Source: a virus
Virus record (IMG/VR): IMGVR_UViG_3300045988_144509
Span: 1-52,424 of that record
DNA length: 52,424 nucleotides
Direction: 5' to 3' (one strand)
The translations under genes and the position numbers were made by a program. The notes beneath the pieces were generated by a model that did no database searches, was not told where the DNA came from, and saw nothing but the letters and a program-made list of their open reading frames with translations. Positions 21,396 through 38,047 of this stretch are shown here, one piece after another (positions within the stretch are counted from its first letter, which is position 1; every line of letters begins with the position of its first letter).

Positions 21396-21507
21396 TTTAT
21401 TAAGCTCCTTTTCTTTGCCATTTTTCCAACGTCGGAATAATGGGTGATATTATTGGCTTCTGCCTTATATTAATATTATAACATATATAAAAATATTAAT
21501 ATAAGTG

Positions 21508-21536
21508 TTGACATTTTATTATGTATAGTTTATAAT
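21508..21536 (+). promoter_or_regulatory. Sigma-A type promoter
   Basis: TTGACA-17 nt-TATAAT. Confidence 0.5.
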
Positions 21537-21634
21537 ATAAGTATGTTAAGACGTTTTAGATAATATCTTTAGAGAATAATTATAAACTCTTCGCAATCTA
21601 CTTCCATAACTTTACTTTTTATATCTAAGACGTA

Positions 21635-21663
21635 TTGACATATAATATAATAAAGTGTATAAT
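21635..21663 (+). promoter_or_regulatory. Sigma-A type promoter
   Basis: TTGACA-17 nt-TATAAT. Confidence 0.5.
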
Positions 21664-21754
21664 GTAATTGTTAAAGCACTACGGAATAAATAAAATCATC
21701 TTTTCACTCTCAATCTAAATATAGGTGATTTAACTAGGCATTAAATAACCCCTT

Positions 21755-21790
21755 TAGCACGTTACTTTTTAAGTAGCGTGTATTTTTTTA
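21755..21790 (+). terminator. Terminator/attenuator hairpin in the leader of the rightward transcript
   Basis: agcacgttact / agtagcgtg stem followed by a T8 run. Confidence 0.4.
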
Positions 21791-21800
21791 TATATTTTCA

Positions 21801-21829
21801 TTGCATTGAATTATGATGTATGTTATAAT
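21801..21829 (+). promoter_or_regulatory. Sigma-A type promoter
   Basis: TTGCAT-17 nt-TATAAT, 18 nt upstream of the 21847 ATG. Confidence 0.45.
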
Positions 21830-21846
21830 ATAAACGAGGTGATATA

Positions 21847-22071
21847 ATGATTAAGTGTGAATTAACAGAAAAACAAAAGGAATATTTTAAGTACTTCAAT
21901 TTTGAATATTGTACACTTGATTATGAGTTTCAAGGTCGTTACAGACATCAATTCAATTTTGATGTAGTACATCTTATAAAAAGAAGATACGCCAATCTAC
22001 CAGTAGATAAAGAGTTATTATCTCAAATGGTAGATGATGTAATCAAGGTAATTGAAGCGTTGAGGTGGTAA
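21847..22071 (+). CDS. Hypothetical protein
   Basis: 74 aa, RBS GAGGTG. Confidence 0.4.
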   Translation: MIKCELTEKQKEYFKYFNFEYCTLDYEFQGRYRHQFNFDVVHLIKRRYANLPVDKELLSQMVDDVIKVIEALRW

Positions 22072-22072
22072 A

Positions 22073-22357
22073 ATGTGTATGGATTTTGTTAATGAAATGC
22101 AATTTAGTATTGATTATGCTGATTTTGAAGATATATGCAGACATTTTAATTTAAATGAAAGCACGAGAGAGGTTTTACTTAAAAGACTTAAATAAGTTGA
22201 AGGTATAGCTATATATAAAAATAAAACTCTTGTGCATTTGGATAAGTTTTACAATGCTATTATCGTGTTTAAAGATTTACAACCGATTAATGAAACAGTA
22301 AAAGAAGAAACTGCTAAAATTTTAGTTAATTTGATTAAGAAAGATGTTGACAATAAG
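22073..22357 (+). pseudogene. Hypothetical gene interrupted by in-frame TAA at 22193-22195
   Basis: A 40-codon ORF (MCMDFVNEMQF...LLKRLK) and a 54-codon open continuation (VEGIAIYKNK...DVDNK) lie in the same frame. The continuation has no start codon or SD. Confidence 0.35.
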
Positions 22358-22406
22358 TAAACAACTTGCTATAATGTAAATATAAACAATAAAGGAGATT
22401 AATAAA

Positions 22407-22664
22407 ATGAAGAAAAATGAAAAGATTAAATCAATGATTAATACTTGTAATACGTCAAAAAGTATGATAGAAAGACAAATTTTTGAGCGTTTTAATGTAA
22501 TTGAAAGATATTGCGATTATGCAAAAGAAAGGATTTCTAATGGTATAGTTGACGATTGTTATATAAATACTATTGAATTTGAAATCGAATTAATTAAACG
22601 ACATTATAACAGATATAAAACAGAAGAAGAAAAGATACAACAGTTAGAAGCATTAAATAAATAA
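22407..22664 (+). CDS. Hypothetical protein
   Basis: 85 aa with RBS AAAGGAG. Confidence 0.4.
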   Translation: MKKNEKIKSMINTCNTSKSMIERQIFERFNVIERYCDYAKERISNGIVDDCYINTIEFEIELIKRHYNRYKTEEEKIQQLEALNK

Positions 22665-22672
22665 GATATTTA

Positions 22673-22702
22673 GGCGCGTTATGAAAATAGCGTGCTTTTT
22701 TT
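22673..22702 (+). terminator. Rho-independent terminator
   Basis: gcgcgtta-tgaaaa-tagcgtgc (two G.U pairs) followed by T7. Confidence 0.45.
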
Positions 22703-22703
22703 A

Positions 22704-22732
22704 TTGACAAAATTAAGATAAAATGGTATAAT
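22704..22732 (+). promoter_or_regulatory. Sigma-A type promoter of the antirepressor gene
   Basis: TTGACA-17 nt-TATAAT; followed by a structured leader (ggcaga...aagag...ctcttctgcc). Confidence 0.5.
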
Positions 22733-22836
22733 ATATCAAAGGCAGATAGGGACGTATACACCGACAAGAGTAAGCTCCTGCTCTTCTGCCTTATCTTTAT
22801 ATAACGGAGTAAAATATAATGACAGGAGTTTTCATC

Positions 22837-33146: not shown

Positions 33147-33869
33147 TTAACATTCATAGGTGAATAGTTTTTCTGTTCTATCAATACTTTTTCTATTTTC
33201 TCTATGACCTAGACCACACTTTATTTCTTTAGACCATAAACATTTAAAATCAGAAGGTGCAACATATTCACTTATAAATATTTTATAACCTTCTCTCGCC
33301 TTATTTCTGCACCATTCCCAAAATTCATCATGATTAAAATTGCCTGTTATGTATCCTGTTGAATTTTTATATGGCGGGTCGCAATATATCAAACTATTAC
33401 TAGGGATATACAAATCCTTGTAATCTGAATATACAAAATTAACACCTTTTATGTTATTTAATTGCTTAAGTATGTTGTTAGAACACTCAATCATATAATT
33501 TCTTGATTTACTTGTTCCCTCTTTATACTCTTTCCCAGAATATCCATTCATAAACATTCCCCTATAGCATAAAGCGGTAAAACCTACCCACCCAACATAA
33601 TAATCTGGATATTTATCTTTATTTTCTTTAACTTTTAGAGCTTCTTCTTTTGATATACCTATTAGCGGTTTATATCCTTTTTGAAGTTCTTTGAATAACG
33701 CTATCAAATATTTATTATTATCTGCTCCTATTCTTTTACCGCCAACCTTATCAATGACGTTAGCACCACCGACGAAAGGCTCAACCCATGTCATACCTTC
33801 TTTTCTGTGAGCTTGCATTATTGGTATTATATACTTTGCTATCCTTGATTTACTGCCCATATATCTCAA
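33147..33869 (-). CDS. N6-adenine DNA methyltransferase, Dam/D12 class
   Basis: 240 aa. N-terminal MRYMGSKSRIAKYIIP..EPFVGGANV (AdoMet motif) and catalytic DPPY motif (LIYCDPPYKNS). Confidence 0.7.
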   Translation of the reverse strand: MRYMGSKSRIAKYIIPIMQAHRKEGMTWVEPFVGGANVIDKVGGKRIGADNNKYLIALFKELQKGYKPLIGISKEEALKVKENKDKYPDYYVGWVGFTALCYRGMFMNGYSGKEYKEGTSKSRNYMIECSNNILKQLNNIKGVNFVYSDYKDLYIPSNSLIYCDPPYKNSTGYITGNFNHDEFWEWCRNKAREGYKIFISEYVAPSDFKCLWSKEIKCGLGHRENRKSIDRTEKLFTYEC

Positions 33870-33880
33870 TTATTATCACC

Positions 33881-34183
33881 TTATACCATTTGCTGTTTAA
33901 TTTTGTATCTACCATTTGCGGTTTTAGCACGGAAAATGTAAAATTCCTTGTAACGTCTTTTAACAATGAAGTCAAACGCACTTTTAATATCCATGAAGTA
34001 CCAATTCATCTTTACGTTATTTCTAATTGTCTTAACTATGAAGAAGGTAACCTTACTACCACAACTTATGATATCGCTTAACTCAACGTTACTCTTAATG
34101 TTACTTAGCAACTTTATCTTTTCTTGTTTCGTCATGTTCTCACCTACTTTGTATTTTCTACTCAATCTCTTGACAACCAACAA
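33881..34183 (-). CDS. Hypothetical basic protein
   Basis: 100-aa ORF with RBS AGGTGAG; preceded on the minus strand by a ~400-nt GC-rich leader. Confidence 0.35.
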   Translation of the reverse strand: MLVVKRLSRKYKVGENMTKQEKIKLLSNIKSNVELSDIISCGSKVTFFIVKTIRNNVKMNWYFMDIKSAFDFIVKRRYKEFYIFRAKTANGRYKIKQQMV

Positions 34184-34185
34184 TC

Positions 34186-34590
34186 AATCAACTAATGCTG
34201 GTAGAGAGTTAACTCAAGAAGCGTAGTCTTTGCCCCCGCCACTTGGGGGACGTTAAAGACCACGTTAAAAGTTCTAATGCTGTATATCGAGCTGAACTCT
34301 TTCGCTTCATCTAAACCACCTAAGAGCCTAGGTCTGCCGTTATCTCCACAACTGCCACGTTGTACGGTGGTTCGCCTCACTTACCTTATCAATGGTATCA
34401 CAGGACGGTTTTGTATATGGTGATAAAATCCATATACGCAGTACAAGGAGTTTCACCCTGTACGCATCTAGGATTGTCTTACCCTCTAACGGCAACTGAC
34501 ACTGTGGCAAGCAGTGAATTTTATTTTAAGGTGGTTTGAATATCAACACCCGCATTTTTCAAGTTGCGGTTTAACTCTCTATTAACTTAA
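34186..34590 (-). ncRNA. Candidate structured untranslated RNA / long 5' leader (GC-rich, about 45% GC vs about 29% for the genome)
   Basis: No ORF. Numerous GC hairpins, including gtcttt-gccccc-gccactt-ggggg-ac...aaagac, ccgca-tttttcaagt-tgcgg, tatatgg-tgataaaat-ccatata and gtacaagg-agtttca-ccctgtac. A perfect minus-strand TTGACA-17-TATAAT promoter lies at 34595-34623. Confidence 0.35.
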
Positions 34591-34594
34591 CTAC

Positions 34595-34623
34595 ATTATA
34601 GCATTATATATTTTTATTGTCAA
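34595..34623 (-). promoter_or_regulatory. Minus-strand consensus promoter
   Basis: Minus strand reads TTGACA-17 nt-TATAAT; divergent from the plus-strand promoters at 34630 and 34699. Confidence 0.5.
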
Positions 34624-34629
34624 TAGGTA

Positions 34630-34658
34630 TTTACAAATTTATTTTAATGTGCTATAAT
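34630..34658 (+). promoter_or_regulatory. Plus-strand promoter
   Basis: TTTACA-17 nt-TATAAT. Confidence 0.45.
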
Positions 34659-34698
34659 AAATTTATTCCTTTTATCGCTAAATTTTTATAGAAAGGTG

Positions 34699-34727
34699 TT
34701 GACAAATTAAAATTAATATAGTATAAT
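34699..34727 (+). promoter_or_regulatory. Plus-strand consensus promoter driving the ncRNA/tRNA transcript
   Basis: TTGACA-17 nt-TATAAT (perfect consensus). Confidence 0.55.
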
Positions 34728-34733
34728 ATAAAC

Positions 34734-35380
34734 ATAGACAACTTAATATAGCCTAGATGGGAAACTGTTCGATTGATTTGGGGGCGAAAGCTCCCAATAC
34801 ATAATTTGATATCTTTATCAAGTATACATTCTAACCATGTGTAAACGTTCTAATCAAACCTCATGGAGTGCTGGTTTGTTGAGTAGGGTTGTAGTGGGAT
34901 ACTGCTATAATTGAGCTTTTATTTATTGGTAACAGTAAATAACAATTGGGTAAACCAAAAGAAGTACAGCACGTACAAATTATAACGCTAGTTAAAACAC
35001 AAGTTGTATGGCGGTGATAATAAACGACCCTGTGGGTAATAATCAGCTATGCCATTTAGTTTACAACTAAATCGAGCTAACTGAAATGTAAAAGTAAACC
35101 GTGTGGCTTTGAAGTATAGAAATATACTATAACATATTACTTGGTTAAAGTAGCATAATAGCCTATTTGATGATAATACGTAATTTATTAATTACTCTTG
35201 TAATCCGAATGATATGTGAAATTTGCAGACAAACATTTCTGCGTGAGGTAAAAGGGGGCAAGAAGTTATAAGGTAGCTCCTTATAGCTCGGACTTGTCTT
35301 TCTCACTGGTTGAATAAGCTAGAAGTTATAAAGAGTAGAGCGAAAGTTCATAATGTATACTTAATAAAGATATCAAATAA
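34734..35380 (+). ncRNA. Candidate large noncoding RNA / about 650-nt untranslated precursor upstream of two tRNAs
   Basis: No ORF of meaningful length. GNRA-capped helix ggggc-GAAA-gctccc at 34781-34796, hairpins taagg-tagct-cctta and gcaga-caaacatt-tctgc, and a long-range gtgag...ctcac pairing. Consensus promoter upstream and tRNAs immediately downstream. Confidence 0.35.
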
Positions 35381-35457
35381 ACGTGAGTGGTGGAATAGGC
35401 ATACACACAAGTCTTAGAAACTTGATTTTGAAGGTTCGAGTCCTTTCTCACGTACCA
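35381..35457 (+). tRNA. tRNA with anticodon UAG (Leu by anticodon; atypical short variable arm, A73 discriminator)
   Basis: Acceptor acgtgag/ctcacgt; T-arm gaagg-TTCGAGT-ccttt; anticodon stem caagt/acttg with loop cTTAGaa; encoded 3' CCA. Confidence 0.55.
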
Positions 35458-35460
35458 TAT

Positions 35461-35537
35461 GATGATATAGCCAAAATGGTTAAGGCGAAGGTCTGCAAAA
35501 CCTTTATTTCTCGGTTCAAGTCCGAGTATCATCTCCA
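35461..35537 (+). tRNA. tRNA-Cys (anticodon GCA)
   Basis: Acceptor gatgata/tatcatc with U73; D-stem gcc/ggc with GG in the loop; anticodon stem aaggt/acctt with loop cTGCAaa; T-arm ctcgg-TTCAAGT-ccgag; encoded CCA. Confidence 0.65.
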
Positions 35538-35612
35538 CGAAAGAAATAAGCAAGACATCTTAACAAAAATAATAACTTTACGACATCTTGCACAATTAAA
35601 GCACTTAGTATA

Positions 35613-36011
35613 ATGCTAGGTGCTTATTTTGTATATAAGGAGTTCGGAAATGTGAACAAATACGATAAATTAATTGATTGGTTATGCTATAAATATAGTA
35701 TACTTCATAAGTTAGAAATAAGACATCAGAAAAGCATTAAAGTTAGATATAGAAAAAGAAATTACATAACTAGAATAGTAAATAAGAAAAAGAGTTATGT
35801 TTTTAGATTACCGAATTTTGATAAATTGACGTTTATTAGTGATGAAGATAAACATAAATTAGTAATAAGTGAATTTATCAGATTTTTCTTAATTGGTGCG
35901 GTTTATAAGAAAATTAAGAATGAAAACCATTTAAGAAAGGTAATAATGAACAACACAGAAAAACTATATTATCTGTATAATAAGGAGGTGTTAGCAGGTG
36001 GCAAAGTATGA
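35613..36011 (+). CDS. Hypothetical basic protein upstream of the terminase
   Basis: 132 aa, Lys/Arg-rich; a long ORF for AT-rich DNA. Confidence 0.35.
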   Translation: MLGAYFVYKEFGNVNKYDKLIDWLCYKYSILHKLEIRHQKSIKVRYRKRNYITRIVNKKKSYVFRLPNFDKLTFISDEDKHKLVISEFIRFFLIGAVYKKIKNENHLRKVIMNNTEKLYYLYNKEVLAGGKV

Positions 36012-36459
36012 CCAATGGAATACAGAAGAAGGCTTTATTAAAATTGAAGGCTGGGCAAAAGATGGATTAACAAATGAGCAGATAGCAAACAAAATGGAAA
36101 TAAACAGAATTACATTATATAATTGGTCTTTAAAAAATCCTAAGATTGCAGAAGCTCTCAAAAAAGGTAAAGATGTGATTGATAGAAAAGTTGAGAACTC
36201 TCTCTTAAAACGTGCGTTAGGTTATGAATATGACGAAACGACTACAATCACAGATAGCGAAGGCAACGAAACAACTAAGGTTATAAGAAAACATGTAATA
36301 CCAGATACAACGGCTCAAATATTCTGGCTCAAGAATAGAAAACCTACAGAATGGCGAGATAAACGAGAATACAAAGATAATGAAGCGCTTGAAAAACTCG
36401 ACAAAATTCTTAGTAAAATACCTAATAAATTAGAAAAAGGTATTAGTAAAGATGTTTAA
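35998..36459 (+). CDS. terS: Terminase small subunit
   Basis: 153 aa; N-terminal HTH (GLTNEQIANKMEINRITLYNWSLKNPKIAEALKKGK) typical of TerS; overlaps the TerL start. Confidence 0.65.
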   Translation: MAKYDQWNTEEGFIKIEGWAKDGLTNEQIANKMEINRITLYNWSLKNPKIAEALKKGKDVIDRKVENSLLKRALGYEYDETTTITDSEGNETTKVIRKHVIPDTTAQIFWLKNRKPTEWRDKREYKDNEALEKLDKILSKIPNKLEKGISKDV

Positions 36460-38047
36460 TTTTAGTAAAAACCAGCTAGAATATTTAAATGACGCTTGCC
36501 ATAGATGGAACATAAAAAGCGGTGCAGTAAGAAGTGGTAAGACTTACCTTGATATAGCTGTTGTTATACCATGTAGAATAAGAGCAGTAGCAGGAAAAGA
36601 AGGTTTGACAGTATTTCTAGGCAATACCAAAGGTACAATACAACGTAACGTAATTGAACCACTTCAGCAAATGTACGGTAAAAACTTAGTTAGTAGTATA
36701 AGAGCAGACAATACCGCCACAATATTCGGAGAAAAAGTTTACTGCTTAGGTGCAAGCAAAATAAATCAAGTTGATGTTTTGCGAGGTATGTCTATAAAGT
36801 ATTGTTATGGTGATGAAGTTGTAACATGGTGTAAAGAAGTATTTGAAATGCTTAAATCACGTCTTGATAAATCTTATAGTAGGTGTGATTTAACTTGCAA
36901 CCCAGATAGTCCTTTACATTGGTTTAAAGAATTTATTGATAGTGATGTTGATAAATACTTGCAAGAATACACGATTGATGATAATCCATTCTTACCAGAA
37001 GAATTTGTAAGAAACCTTAAAAAAGAGTATGAAGGCTCCGTTTGGTATGATAGGCTTATATTAGGGAAATGGGTACGTGCAGAAGGTTTAGTTTATCCTA
37101 TGTTTTATAAAGATAAACATTGCTTTATTGAACCGCCAACAAATAAATATGAGCAGTATTATATAAGTGCGGACTATGGTATATTAAATCCATTTAGTGC
37201 TGGCTTATGGGGTAAATATAATGGCAAATGGTACAGAATTGCAGAATATTACCATGATGGACGTAAAACGAATAAACAATACACAGATGAAGAATATCAC
37301 ACTAAACTATTAGACCTTGCAGGTGATTTGCCAATTAGAAGCATAATTATCGACCCTTCTGCAAGTTCCATGATTGCTACTATCAGAAAGCATGGAAATT
37401 TTAATATTAGGAAAGCAAAAAATGACGTATTAGAAGGAATTAGAAACACCGCCACAGAATTAAACAAAGGTAACATACTCATAAACTCTAAATGTAAAGC
37501 CTTCATCAATGAAATTGAGGGGTATAGCTGGGACAAGGATAACACAAAAGAGGACAAGCCACTTAAAGAAAAGGACCACTGTCTTACAGGTGATACAATA
37601 ATAAATACAATAAATGGTGATATTCCTATTAAAGATTTAGTAGGTAAAAGTGGACTTGTTAAGGCTTATGACACATATAACAATAAAGTTGTAACTGCTA
37701 AATTTAAAGATGTTAGACTTACACAGAAAAACGCAAGAGTATTTGAGGTGAAGCTTAATAGCGGTAAAATAATAAAAGCAACTGCTGAACACCCTATGTA
37801 CACTAAAAGAGGGTGGGTAATGGTAAGAGATTTAAGAACAGATGATACTATCTTAGATATAAATATTGGATATTCTTATATCTATAGTATAACTTTTGAT
37901 AGCTTTCAAGATGTGTACAATATGGAAGTTGAAAAATATCATAACTTTTCTATAAATGGCGGTTTGATAGTTCATAACTGCATGGACGATTTTAGATATT
38001 TTGTTAATACAGTAGTAGCACGTGGCAATACGTTTGAGGTTGCTTAA
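36452..38047 (+). CDS. terL: Terminase large subunit containing a mini-intein
   Basis: 531 aa. ATPase N-terminal region with Walker A-like SGAVRSGKT and a C-terminal nuclease region. A 133-aa Hint-domain insertion (CLTGDT...IVHN|C) interrupts the C-terminal part. Confidence 0.7.
   Translation: MFNFSKNQLEYLNDACHRWNIKSGAVRSGKTYLDIAVVIPCRIRAVAGKEGLTVFLGNTKGTIQRNVIEPLQQMYGKNLVSSIRADNTATIFGEKVYCLGASKINQVDVLRGMSIKYCYGDEVVTWCKEVFEMLKSRLDKSYSRCDLTCNPDSPLHWFKEFIDSDVDKYLQEYTIDDNPFLPEEFVRNLKKEYEGSVWYDRLILGKWVRAEGLVYPMFYKDKHCFIEPPTNKYEQYYISADYGILNPFSAGLWGKYNGKWYRIAEYYHDGRKTNKQYTDEEYHTKLLDLAGDLPIRSIIIDPSASSMIATIRKHGNFNIRKAKNDVLEGIRNTATELNKGNILINSKCKAFINEIEGYSWDKDNTKEDKPLKEKDHCLTGDTIINTINGDIPIKDLVGKSGLVKAYDTYNNKVVTAKFKDVRLTQKNARVFEVKLNSGKIIKATAEHPMYTKRGWVMVRDLRTDDTILDINIGYSYIYSITFDSFQDVYNMEVEKYHNFSINGGLIVHNCMDDFRYFVNTVVARGNTFEVA
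37580..37978 (+). mobile_element. Mini-intein (Hint domain, no homing endonuclease) within terL
   Basis: N-terminal splice block CLTGDTIINT. Block B ATAEHPMYT (Thr/His). C-terminal block ..GGLIVHN followed by +1 Cys (CMDD). 399 nt, in frame. Confidence 0.7.

Follow-up and report, generated by a model that had tools for sequence, protein, structure and literature searches.

We analyzed a 52,424-nucleotide (nt) stretch of viral DNA, positions 1 to 52,424 of IMG/VR record IMGVR_UViG_3300045988_144509 (the window), and found that positions 34136–35651 form a non-coding RNA island, with two RNA genes arranged back to back, in a gut phage (an uncultured member of the Caudoviricetes). The rightward gene is recognizable as a ROOL RNA followed by two tRNAs, and the leftward gene as an extended EGFOA-type RNA. 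We are quite confident that this description of the whole region, as two divergent RNA units, is correct. Both RNAs belong to families that have been described; what this analysis adds is the extended architecture of the EGFOA-type RNA and the unusual pairing of the two.

Positions 34804–35378 are recognizable as an ordinary full-length ROOL RNA in a textbook context. The Rfam model for ROOL (RF03087) matches over its entire length (model positions 1–574 of 574) with 300.6 bits (gathering score 99.1 bits; E = 3.4e-68). ROOL RNAs are near 580 nt, with multistem junctions and pseudoknots; this one is 575 nt long including its closing helix, and nearly all of the consensus helices and all of the bracketed pseudoknot strands are kept. 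The closing helix (P1) has 27 base pairs (bp) and joins 34804–34830 to 35352–35378; 26 of the 27 pairs form as an inverted repeat. We also found about 20 near-identical contigs, each roughly 50 kb, from other samples. In L041, which is the most divergent member of this clade (93.6% identity over the region), the ROOL scores 294.9 bits.

The original prediction for this region, made from the sequence without database searches, had placed a tRNA(UAG)–tRNA-Cys tandem at its right end, and these are tRNA-Leu(UAG) and tRNA-Cys(GCA). It had also guessed at the GOLLD or ROOL classes. The right-hand part is indeed ROOL, but GOLLD is unmatched, and the left-hand part is a separate RNA. Another suggestion, a long processed tRNA precursor, was half right. 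One precursor very probably contains both ROOL and the tRNAs, but the RNA upstream of the tRNAs is a conserved class and not spacer. We propose that the rightward promoter, the leader, ROOL, both tRNAs, and the terminator would give a single transcript. The 5' end of the tRNA-Leu is just 2 nt from the closing helix of ROOL, which suggests that a cut by RNase P at this end would set the 3' end of ROOL. The freed ROOL would then assemble into an RNA-only homo-octameric cage, as another ROOL does.

The leader of the rightward unit lies outside the Rfam model. The GAAA-capped helix that had been predicted from the sequence is present in it. Its stability is unremarkable (z = -1.65). In related contigs the hairpin is conserved, and the part upstream of the hairpin is variable, with an insertion in L001.

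One related contig (L044; 3.2 kb; ERZ27269897:k141_12101) is otherwise 99% identical to the window but lacks some 240 nt in the center of ROOL (window positions 34902–35142). At the junction, the flanking alignments overlap by 15 nt. This could be a natural deletion or an assembly artefact.

The left-hand RNA is on the minus strand. We searched positions 34100–34850 (751 nt) against Rfam with permissive settings, and the only match below E = 1 was to EGFOA (RF02955), on the minus strand at 34314–34426 (27.1 bits, E = 0.0087). The search gave no match to GOLLD, HEARO, OLE, group I or II introns, or riboswitches with E ≤ 10, and none of these had a match at the Rfam gathering thresholds anywhere in the window. 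The score for EGFOA is low because, where the family has an 8-nt linker, the window has 59 nt with two hairpins.

To find relatives, we used a DNA search pattern made from the positions that the window shares with the Rfam consensus (CCGTCCT, a gap, and then RTAAMGNYAGACCTNRG). The pattern was found at 12 loci in IMG/VR, at 105 in metagenomes, and at 8 in genomes, among them Selenomonas ruminis and a metagenome-assembled genome (MAG) of S. ruminantium. After deduplication, at least 4 of the 5 pairs of the loop-closing stem are present in 81/101 loci, and many of the loci are EGFOA according to Rfam (38–69 bits). All of the relatives that we folded, and the window, have the same order of elements: CCGUCCU, the hairpin Pa, and then the helix Pb around the hairpins Pc and Pd, with a 17-nt loop on Pd. 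EGFOA is characterized by a CCGUCcU motif and by a 5-bp stem that closes a 17-nt loop, GUAAAGCUAGACCUgGG; the window has both, with AUAACGGCAGACCUAGG as its loop. It also has the outer helix that encloses two hairpins, with another hairpin after CCGUCcUAG ahead of it, so that Pa through Pd are all present. It does not have the short linker of about 8 nt between the 5' strands of the two pseudoknots; these are separated by the 59 nt with two hairpins. A 19-mer of the core that also matches coding DNA in L002 was discarded as a chance match.

The long linker is not peculiar to the window. The 5' strands of the pseudoknots are 10–20 nt apart in most members of the family, but they are 59–69 nt apart, with two hairpins between them, in the window's clade and in L071, L141, L155, L167, L174, L078, L152, and L070. 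Rfam's EGFOA model scores these long-linker members at 31.4–38.7 bits, which is on either side of the cut-off of 37.7 bits, or does not report them. The window's 27.1 bits is thus typical of the subfamily and not an outlier.

We built a covariance model of the 5' domain (model R1, with the hairpins P2b, P3, hp1, and hp2 and the motif CCGUCCUGUGAUG) from six rumen or Selenomonas sequences, with the window's clade excluded. R1 has one match in the window, over the full length of the model, at 34396–34552 on the minus strand (67.7 bits, E = 3.9e-17). The window has P2b, P3, GCCGUUAGAGGG, and the two insert hairpins before CCGUCCUGUGAU, as expected for the long-linker subfamily. Among 100 pattern loci, the best match outside the training set was L070, at 55 bits, and canonical members scored about 30 bits; the window is the best non-training match of all the loci searched. 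About 80 loci that have only the search pattern scored below 15 bits or had no match. Because most pattern loci score this low, the 7 pattern nucleotides that are included in R1 cannot explain the score of the window.

Sequence beyond the core points the same way. The 190-nt 5' flank, which contains no pattern nucleotides, has matches in L152 (E = 1.7e-4) and in L078 (E = 1.8e-3), both of them collinear. The 13-nt loop of P2b is UUGAUAUUCAAAC in the window and CUGAGAUGCCAAC in L078, and an A-rich linker comes next. This hairpin and linker are common to the window, L058, L062, L152, and L078, as is AGUGAGGC after Pa. L062 is a canonical EGFOA (61.6 bits) and shares GCCGUUAGAKGGU, AUCCUAGAUG, AACCGUCCUGU, and GAGAUAAMGGCAGACCUAGGCUC with the window. 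From these comparisons, we identify the left RNA as a divergent and enlarged member of the EGFOA family, within a long-linker subfamily that also occurs in rumen metagenomes and Selenomonas genomes.

Both of EGFOA's pseudoknots were deduced from the consensus; the Rfam model does not encode them. In the first (PK1), CCNAG pairs with CUNGG in the loop, and the window has CCUAG and CUAGG. In the second (PK2), GUC(c)UNN pairs with NNAGAC in the loop, and the window has GUC(C)UGU and GCAGAC. We counted pairs across the family at the positions that the search pattern had left free. At the first variable pair of PK2, 57 of 81 loci have G-C and 22 have A-U, with none mixed (79/81 paired). The second variable pair is U-G, G-C, C-G, U-A, or A-U, and is formed in 72/81 loci. 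An exact complement for PK1 lies at most 75 nt upstream in 63/81.

Compensatory changes among close variants (at least 93% identity within the clade) affect five helices and one pseudoknot. In L041, both partners of a pair have changed, with pairing kept, in hp2 (G-C to A-U), Pa (C-G to U-A), Pb (C-G to A-U), and PK2 (U-G to A-U). Its other changes are compatible single changes in Pc and Pd, and the rest are in loops. L047 has two compensatory changes in P3. For the 5' domain, we aligned 12 sequences from across the subfamilies (alignment A5). In A5, 96.6% of the cells are paired, and both partners vary at 20 of the 26 pairs. The covariation score is 0.714, as compared to 0.266 ± 0.026 for shuffled alignments (0/500 reach the actual score) and at most 0.22 for slid controls. 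A run of RNAalifold on a plain MAFFT alignment was set aside: some of its long-range helices were spurious because the 3' half was misaligned.

Could the left segment instead be a new class of RNA, specific to this lineage, that resembles EGFOA by convergence or by chance? The match is below Rfam's gathering score, Rfam's EGFOA model does not report the nearest relatives (L078 and L152) at E < 0.1, and a sequence-only search with the pattern masked came back empty. But the scores form a continuum, from canonical EGFOA at 57–69 bits to long-linker members at 31–39 bits and then to the window, and a canonical member (L062) shares four motifs with the window. The order of helices is also identical, and both pseudoknots covary. 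A new class therefore strikes us as very unlikely, and we treat the left RNA as EGFOA-related.

Several points weigh against our reading of the region. The Rfam match to EGFOA is below the family's cut-off. The relatives were fetched with a pattern that was partly derived from the window, so the sequence evidence from the core is partly circular. In particular, a sequence-only profile of the relatives matches the window with E = 3.7e-10, but this match is lost once 24 pattern nucleotides are masked, and we dismissed it as independent evidence. A5 was fitted to the structure of the model, which flatters its pair counts. P1 of the left RNA and the helices P10–P12 of its 3' domain show no covariation and rest on folding energy and on analogy with relatives; a common variant in the clade breaks one pair of P1. 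The places where transcription starts and where the left RNA ends, the joint transcription of ROOL with the tRNAs, and the processing are predictions. Octamer formation by this ROOL is an extrapolation from other members of its family. Similarly, that the enlarged left RNA may self-associate like the two EGFOA RNAs with solved structures is an extrapolation. Finally, we found no minus-strand terminator at 34200–34136, between the left RNA and the next gene, so read-through is likely and a role as a 5' untranslated region is possible. On the other side, the kinship to EGFOA has independent support from the Rfam match, the R1 model of the 5' domain, the search with the flank, and covariation, and both the changes within the clade and the family-wide counts for the pseudoknots are independent of the fitting of A5.

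The strand of the left RNA is not discriminated by folding: both strands are more stable than shuffled sequences (z of about -3.8 to -4.0). The minus strand is indicated by the Rfam match, by the R1 match, and by G-U pairs that fit this strand only. The GC content is raised over 34100–34500 (0.40–0.475 in 200-nt windows, with 0.24–0.33 on both sides), as had been claimed, and the helix gtcttt-ccccc-gccactt-ggggg-aaagac that had been picked out there is at 34228–34262 and corresponds to P12 on the minus strand. The original prediction had lumped this GC-rich segment with the right-hand feature, but it is the separate EGFOA-related RNA. For the 3' domain, a similar hairpin with runs of C and G and a closing helix are found in L152, L078, L071, L062, and L058. 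The minimum-free-energy structure paired AAACCACCU (34532–34540, within P2b) with AGGUGGUUU. We rejected this pairing because a G-to-U change in L041 is compensated in the other copy, AACCACC (34366–34372). The 5' copy (the 34532–34540 region) instead forms the covarying P2b hairpin in relatives.

The left RNA and the gene downstream of it, which encodes an 84-amino-acid (aa) protein, are probably co-transcribed. The left RNA would then be the 5' part of this mRNA or would be cut out of it. The protein has no match in Pfam, and it falls into two protein clusters that are found in the window's clade only; it is absent from other EGFOA loci. Elsewhere, the homologous RNAs lie in gaps of 650–1,060 nt without ORFs (open reading frames) of 80 aa or more, and the gene downstream is often convergent (as in L060, L063, L065, and L067). 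We did not see an expression platform (a terminator/antiterminator pair, or masking of the ribosome-binding site). The variety of next genes (some convergent), the restriction of the 84-aa protein to the clade, and the lack of a platform favor a free, trans-acting RNA, as has been proposed for EGFOA.

The alternative is that the left segment is a cis-regulatory leader, which might be a riboswitch or might sense a protein or a tRNA, for an operon of the 84-aa gene and a Dam-type methyltransferase. In favor of this, the segment follows a strong promoter and precedes a gene in the same orientation, no terminator separates it from that gene, and the RNA and the 84-aa gene are together in all members of the clade, although the genes further downstream vary. 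However, we saw no terminator/antiterminator or masking pairing, 66 nt separate the structured part from the start codon, and no riboswitch family matches. Homologous RNAs precede unrelated or convergent genes at loci that lack the 84-aa protein. Also, at about 390 nt and some 14 helices, the RNA is far larger than known leaders. We consider a cis-regulatory leader to be improbable, and the earlier suggestion of a riboswitch-like leader for the gene at 33881..34183 is not supported. A free RNA remains our preference.

The divergent consensus promoters of the original prediction are both there, with perfect hexamers. In all variants of the clade the hexamers of the leftward promoter are constant, and the sole change is at one base of the spacer. 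The whole window contains 7 perfect TTGACA-N16-18-TATAAT sites, while 0.15 are expected, and none of 100 shuffled sequences reached 7. We propose that two independent transcription units would start back to back from these consensus sigma-70-type promoters.

The region has no protein-coding potential, as had been noted: it contains no ORF above 62 aa (the longest in 34186–35540), and gene callers leave it empty on 20/20 related contigs that we inspected. The non-coding stretch is slightly larger than was first noted (34186–35540), from the left gene's ATG at 34135, behind an AGGTGAG ribosome-binding site, to the right gene's GTG at 35652. The latter start was taken from calls of a 119-aa gene on related contigs. 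GenBank lists two ORFs across the left RNA as "hypothetical protein," both on the minus strand: DAZ69296.1 (33 aa; 34209–34310) and DAZ69297.1 (56 aa; 34340–34510). Among 15 billion proteins, neither clusters with any other, and both are almost certainly annotation artefacts.

Such a stretch might also be non-functional spacer or decayed coding sequence, with the "leader" being merely a long tRNA precursor. AT-rich phage genomes do carry promoter-like sites by chance, and transcription of the region is a prediction from the sequence. But a ROOL match at 300 bits is beyond chance, and perfect promoters are about 50-fold above expectation. Also, about 20 contigs from separate samples have the same or almost the same left RNA despite swapped flanking genes, and the changes that do exist are compensatory or in loops. 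We find this explanation scarcely credible, and we take the region to encode two structured RNAs. Their features are listed in Table 1.

Table 1. Features of the RNA island and its borders, by window position. Features of the left RNA are given from its 5' end.
Feature	Positions	Strand	Basis or remarks
Leftward promoter TTGACA-N17-TATAAT	34595..34623	-	12/12 match, TG extension; inferred start ~34588
Extended EGFOA-like RNA, ~387 nt	34202..34588	-	5' domain, core with 59-nt two-hairpin insert, 3' domain
P1 long-range helix	34202-34212 with 34571-34582	-	Energy and analogy
5' domain and insert	34396..34552	-	Full-length match to model R1
P2b hairpin, conserved 13-nt loop	34530-34550	-	Model R1, covariation
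P3 hairpin	34500-34516	-	Two compensatory changes in L047
Motif GCCGUUAGAGGGU	34481-34493	-	Ahead of PK1; common to L058, L062, L152, L078
PK1 5' strand CCUAG	34468-34472	-	Pairs with loop CUAGG
Insert hairpin hp1	34437-34465	-	Model R1
Insert hairpin hp2	34414-34436	-	One compensatory change in L041
PK2 5' strand CCGUCCUGU	34400-34408	-	Contains CCGUCCU motif, 34402-34408
EGFOA-type core helices	34314..34397	-	cmscan alignment; same architecture in 14 relatives folded under constraint
Pa hairpin	34382-34397	-	Compensatory change in L041
Pb outer helix	34366-34372 with 34314-34320	-	Encloses Pc and Pd; compensatory change in L041
Pc hairpin	34349-34362	-	Compatible single change in L041
Pd with conserved 17-nt loop AUAACGGCAGACCUAGG	34323-34347	-	Closed by GGAG/CUCU; loop holds the 3' strands of PK1 and PK2
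3' domain	34202..34308	-	Folds; comparable elements in relatives
P10 closing helix GAAGCG/CGCUUC	34303-34308 with 34218-34223	-	Energy and analogy
P11	34267-34302	-	Energy and analogy
P12 G+C-rich hairpin	34223-34263	-	Helix flagged in the original prediction
84-aa basic protein gene, isoelectric point 10.2	33881..34135	-	66 nt downstream of the left RNA
Second rightward promoter-like site, TG extension	34630-34658	+	11/12 match
Rightward promoter TTGACA-N17-TATAAT	34699..34727	+	12/12 match; inferred start ~34734
Leader, ~70 nt, with GAAA-capped hairpin	34735..34803	+	Outside the Rfam ROOL model
GAAA hairpin UUGGGGGC-GAAA-GCUCCCAA	34778-34797	+	Sequence inspection, fold
ROOL RNA	34804..35378	+	RF03087 match at 34811-35368
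tRNA-Leu(UAG)	35381..35457	+	ARAGORN; RF00005 61 bits; begins 2 nt past the ROOL closing helix
tRNA-Cys(GCA)	35461..35537	+	ARAGORN; RF00005 65.8 bits
Intrinsic terminator, 12-bp stem and U-rich tail	35599..35635	+	Just before the next gene's ribosome-binding site

The window is identical to ENA contig ERZ27229662:k119_81682, which is annotated in GenBank as a MAG of an uncultured Caudoviricetes. Gut samples that contain the phage include ERZ27229662 and SRR10084758. Positions 33800–35700 had no blastn matches among the INPHARED phages. Genes for a terminase and an SPP1-type portal protein are 0.6–2.7 kb from ROOL. The portal protein is at most 37% identical to portal proteins from phages of Brevibacillus, Staphylococcus, and Bacillus; a search with it found only the same phage in IMG/VR and nothing among 185,579 genomes. 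The large subunit of the terminase (36452–38047, plus strand, 531 aa) contains an intein at residues ~390–510 (Pfam Intein_splicing and PT-HINT), and the relatives L041, L046–L048, and L050 have an intein-free terminase of 398 aa.

The genes beyond the 84-aa ORF (33147–33869, minus strand) are swapped among near-identical phages, and the RNA island stays fixed. The window has a Dam-type methyltransferase there; a C5 methylase is added in L038, and L040, L041, and L046 have unrelated small genes. Neither RNA was present at 30 loci that contain homologs of the methyltransferase.

The description of the genome as otherwise wall-to-wall coding was too strong, as 21400–22800 contains only ORFs of 85 aa or less. 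This second gene-poor stretch has 4 of the window's 7 perfect promoters (at 21508, 21635, 22347, and 22704, all on the plus strand) and no match in Rfam. It is probably an early or regulatory region.

Is the proximity of the two RNAs meaningful? Among 118 other ROOL-pattern loci from IMG/VR, none has an EGFOA core, even with a relaxed pattern, within fetched flanks of uneven length. Conversely, Rfam scans of about 20 other EGFOA loci found no ROOL, and a tRNA lies within 1 kb of the EGFOA-like RNA at only 2/79 loci. The longest complementary run between the left RNA and the ROOL–tRNA transcript is 8 nt, which is at or below what is seen with shuffled sequences. Given no recurrence and no excess complementarity, the pairing looks like a peculiarity of this phage lineage, which might be meaningful or accidental.

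One 8-nt match involves GCAGACCU in the EGFOA-type loop (34327–34334, minus strand) and AGGUCUGC in the anticodon arm of tRNA-Cys (35489–35496, plus strand). A match of this length is at chance level for these sequence lengths, and the loop is already used by both pseudoknots.

A stronger hypothesis is that the two RNAs stay back to back because they cooperate. The EGFOA-type RNA might form a higher-order assembly of its own or might serve the ROOL cage as a partner, an adaptor, or cargo, which would make a phage-encoded two-component RNA-only machine. We consider this unlikely. No other lineage in this analysis has ROOL and an EGFOA-type RNA as neighbors, and recent work has shown protein-free self-assembly for both families. 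The phage is a compact natural system for asking if RNA assemblies cooperate. The ROOL itself is ordinary, but it adds a clean example of a tRNA whose 5' end is 2 nt from the closing helix.

Three families of phage RNAs are relevant for comparison. GOLLD is a large phage RNA that is found near tRNAs and forms RNA-only cages (PMC12286853). The window has no match to GOLLD, and GOLLD's sequence and fold are unrelated to those of either RNA. The ROOL and EGFOA families were both described by Weinberg et al. 2017 (PMC5737381). ROOL RNAs are encoded by phages or prophages and are often beside tRNA genes (PMC5737381, PMC12286853). By cryo-electron microscopy (cryo-EM), ROOL env-120 from cow rumen is a hollow, RNA-only cage, a homo-octamer with D4 symmetry (Kretsch et al. 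2025, PMC12286853). The window's rightward RNA is like other ROOL RNAs in its size (~575 nt), its long closing helix, its phage origin, and its immediate tRNA neighbor, and the disordered linker of the solved ROOL has an AU-rich variable stretch as its counterpart here. Nothing essential sets it apart; the extra 70-nt leader with the GAAA hairpin comes before the start of the model, and the neighbor on the other side is an EGFOA-like RNA.

Some EGFOA relatives have other structured elements nearby. At L062 (5131–5214) and L104 (1156–1239), there is an 84-nt match to the transfer-messenger RNA (tmRNA) model (RF00023, 76.3 bits) with the tRNA-like ends only: 13 nt are in place of the usual 304-nt body. 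This element is directly after a tRNA and ~180 nt upstream of a canonical EGFOA, in a phage contig. At L056 (10793–11165) and L057 (5517–5889, minus strand), only 12 nt separate EGFOA-assoc-1 (RF02970, ~250 bits) from the EGFOA that follows it on the same strand, and the two look like one RNA of ~370 nt. The window resembles these loci in that EGFOA (with EGFOA-assoc-1 at 250 nt) forms the 3' part of a larger unit. By eye, AUGCAAAC and UAAAACAAAUAAU in the 3' part of EGFOA-assoc-1 look similar to the P2b loop and the A-rich linker of the window, which we consider a lead. The window had no match to RF02970 up to E = 10, and R1 had no match in L056.

The closest comparison is to EGFOA (RF02955) itself. 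Two short EGFOA RNAs have been solved by cryo-EM, one as a trimer and one as a strand-swapped dimer (bioRxiv 10.64898/2026.07.01.735769). The window's RNA shares with EGFOA the CCGUCCU motif, the helices Pa to Pd, the 17-nt loop RUAAMGNYAGACCUNRG on Pd, and the two pseudoknots, and like EGFOA it lies in a gap of a phage genome that is unusually large and free of ORFs. It differs in the size of the unit (~390 nt instead of 108 nt), in the 59-nt two-hairpin segment in place of the 8-nt linker, and in having a conserved 5' domain (P2b, the A-rich linker, P3, and GCCGUUAGAGGG) and a 3' domain of three helices, which the Rfam model does not include. The curated 108-nt model misses or barely catches the subfamily with the two-hairpin insert, and a homologous EGFOA-type unit can reach ~390 nt, including 5' and 3' domains that are conserved and two pseudoknots that covary. 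In a weaker version of the cooperation hypothesis, there may be a class of much larger RNAs with several domains, of which EGFOA as catalogued (108 nt) is only the core.

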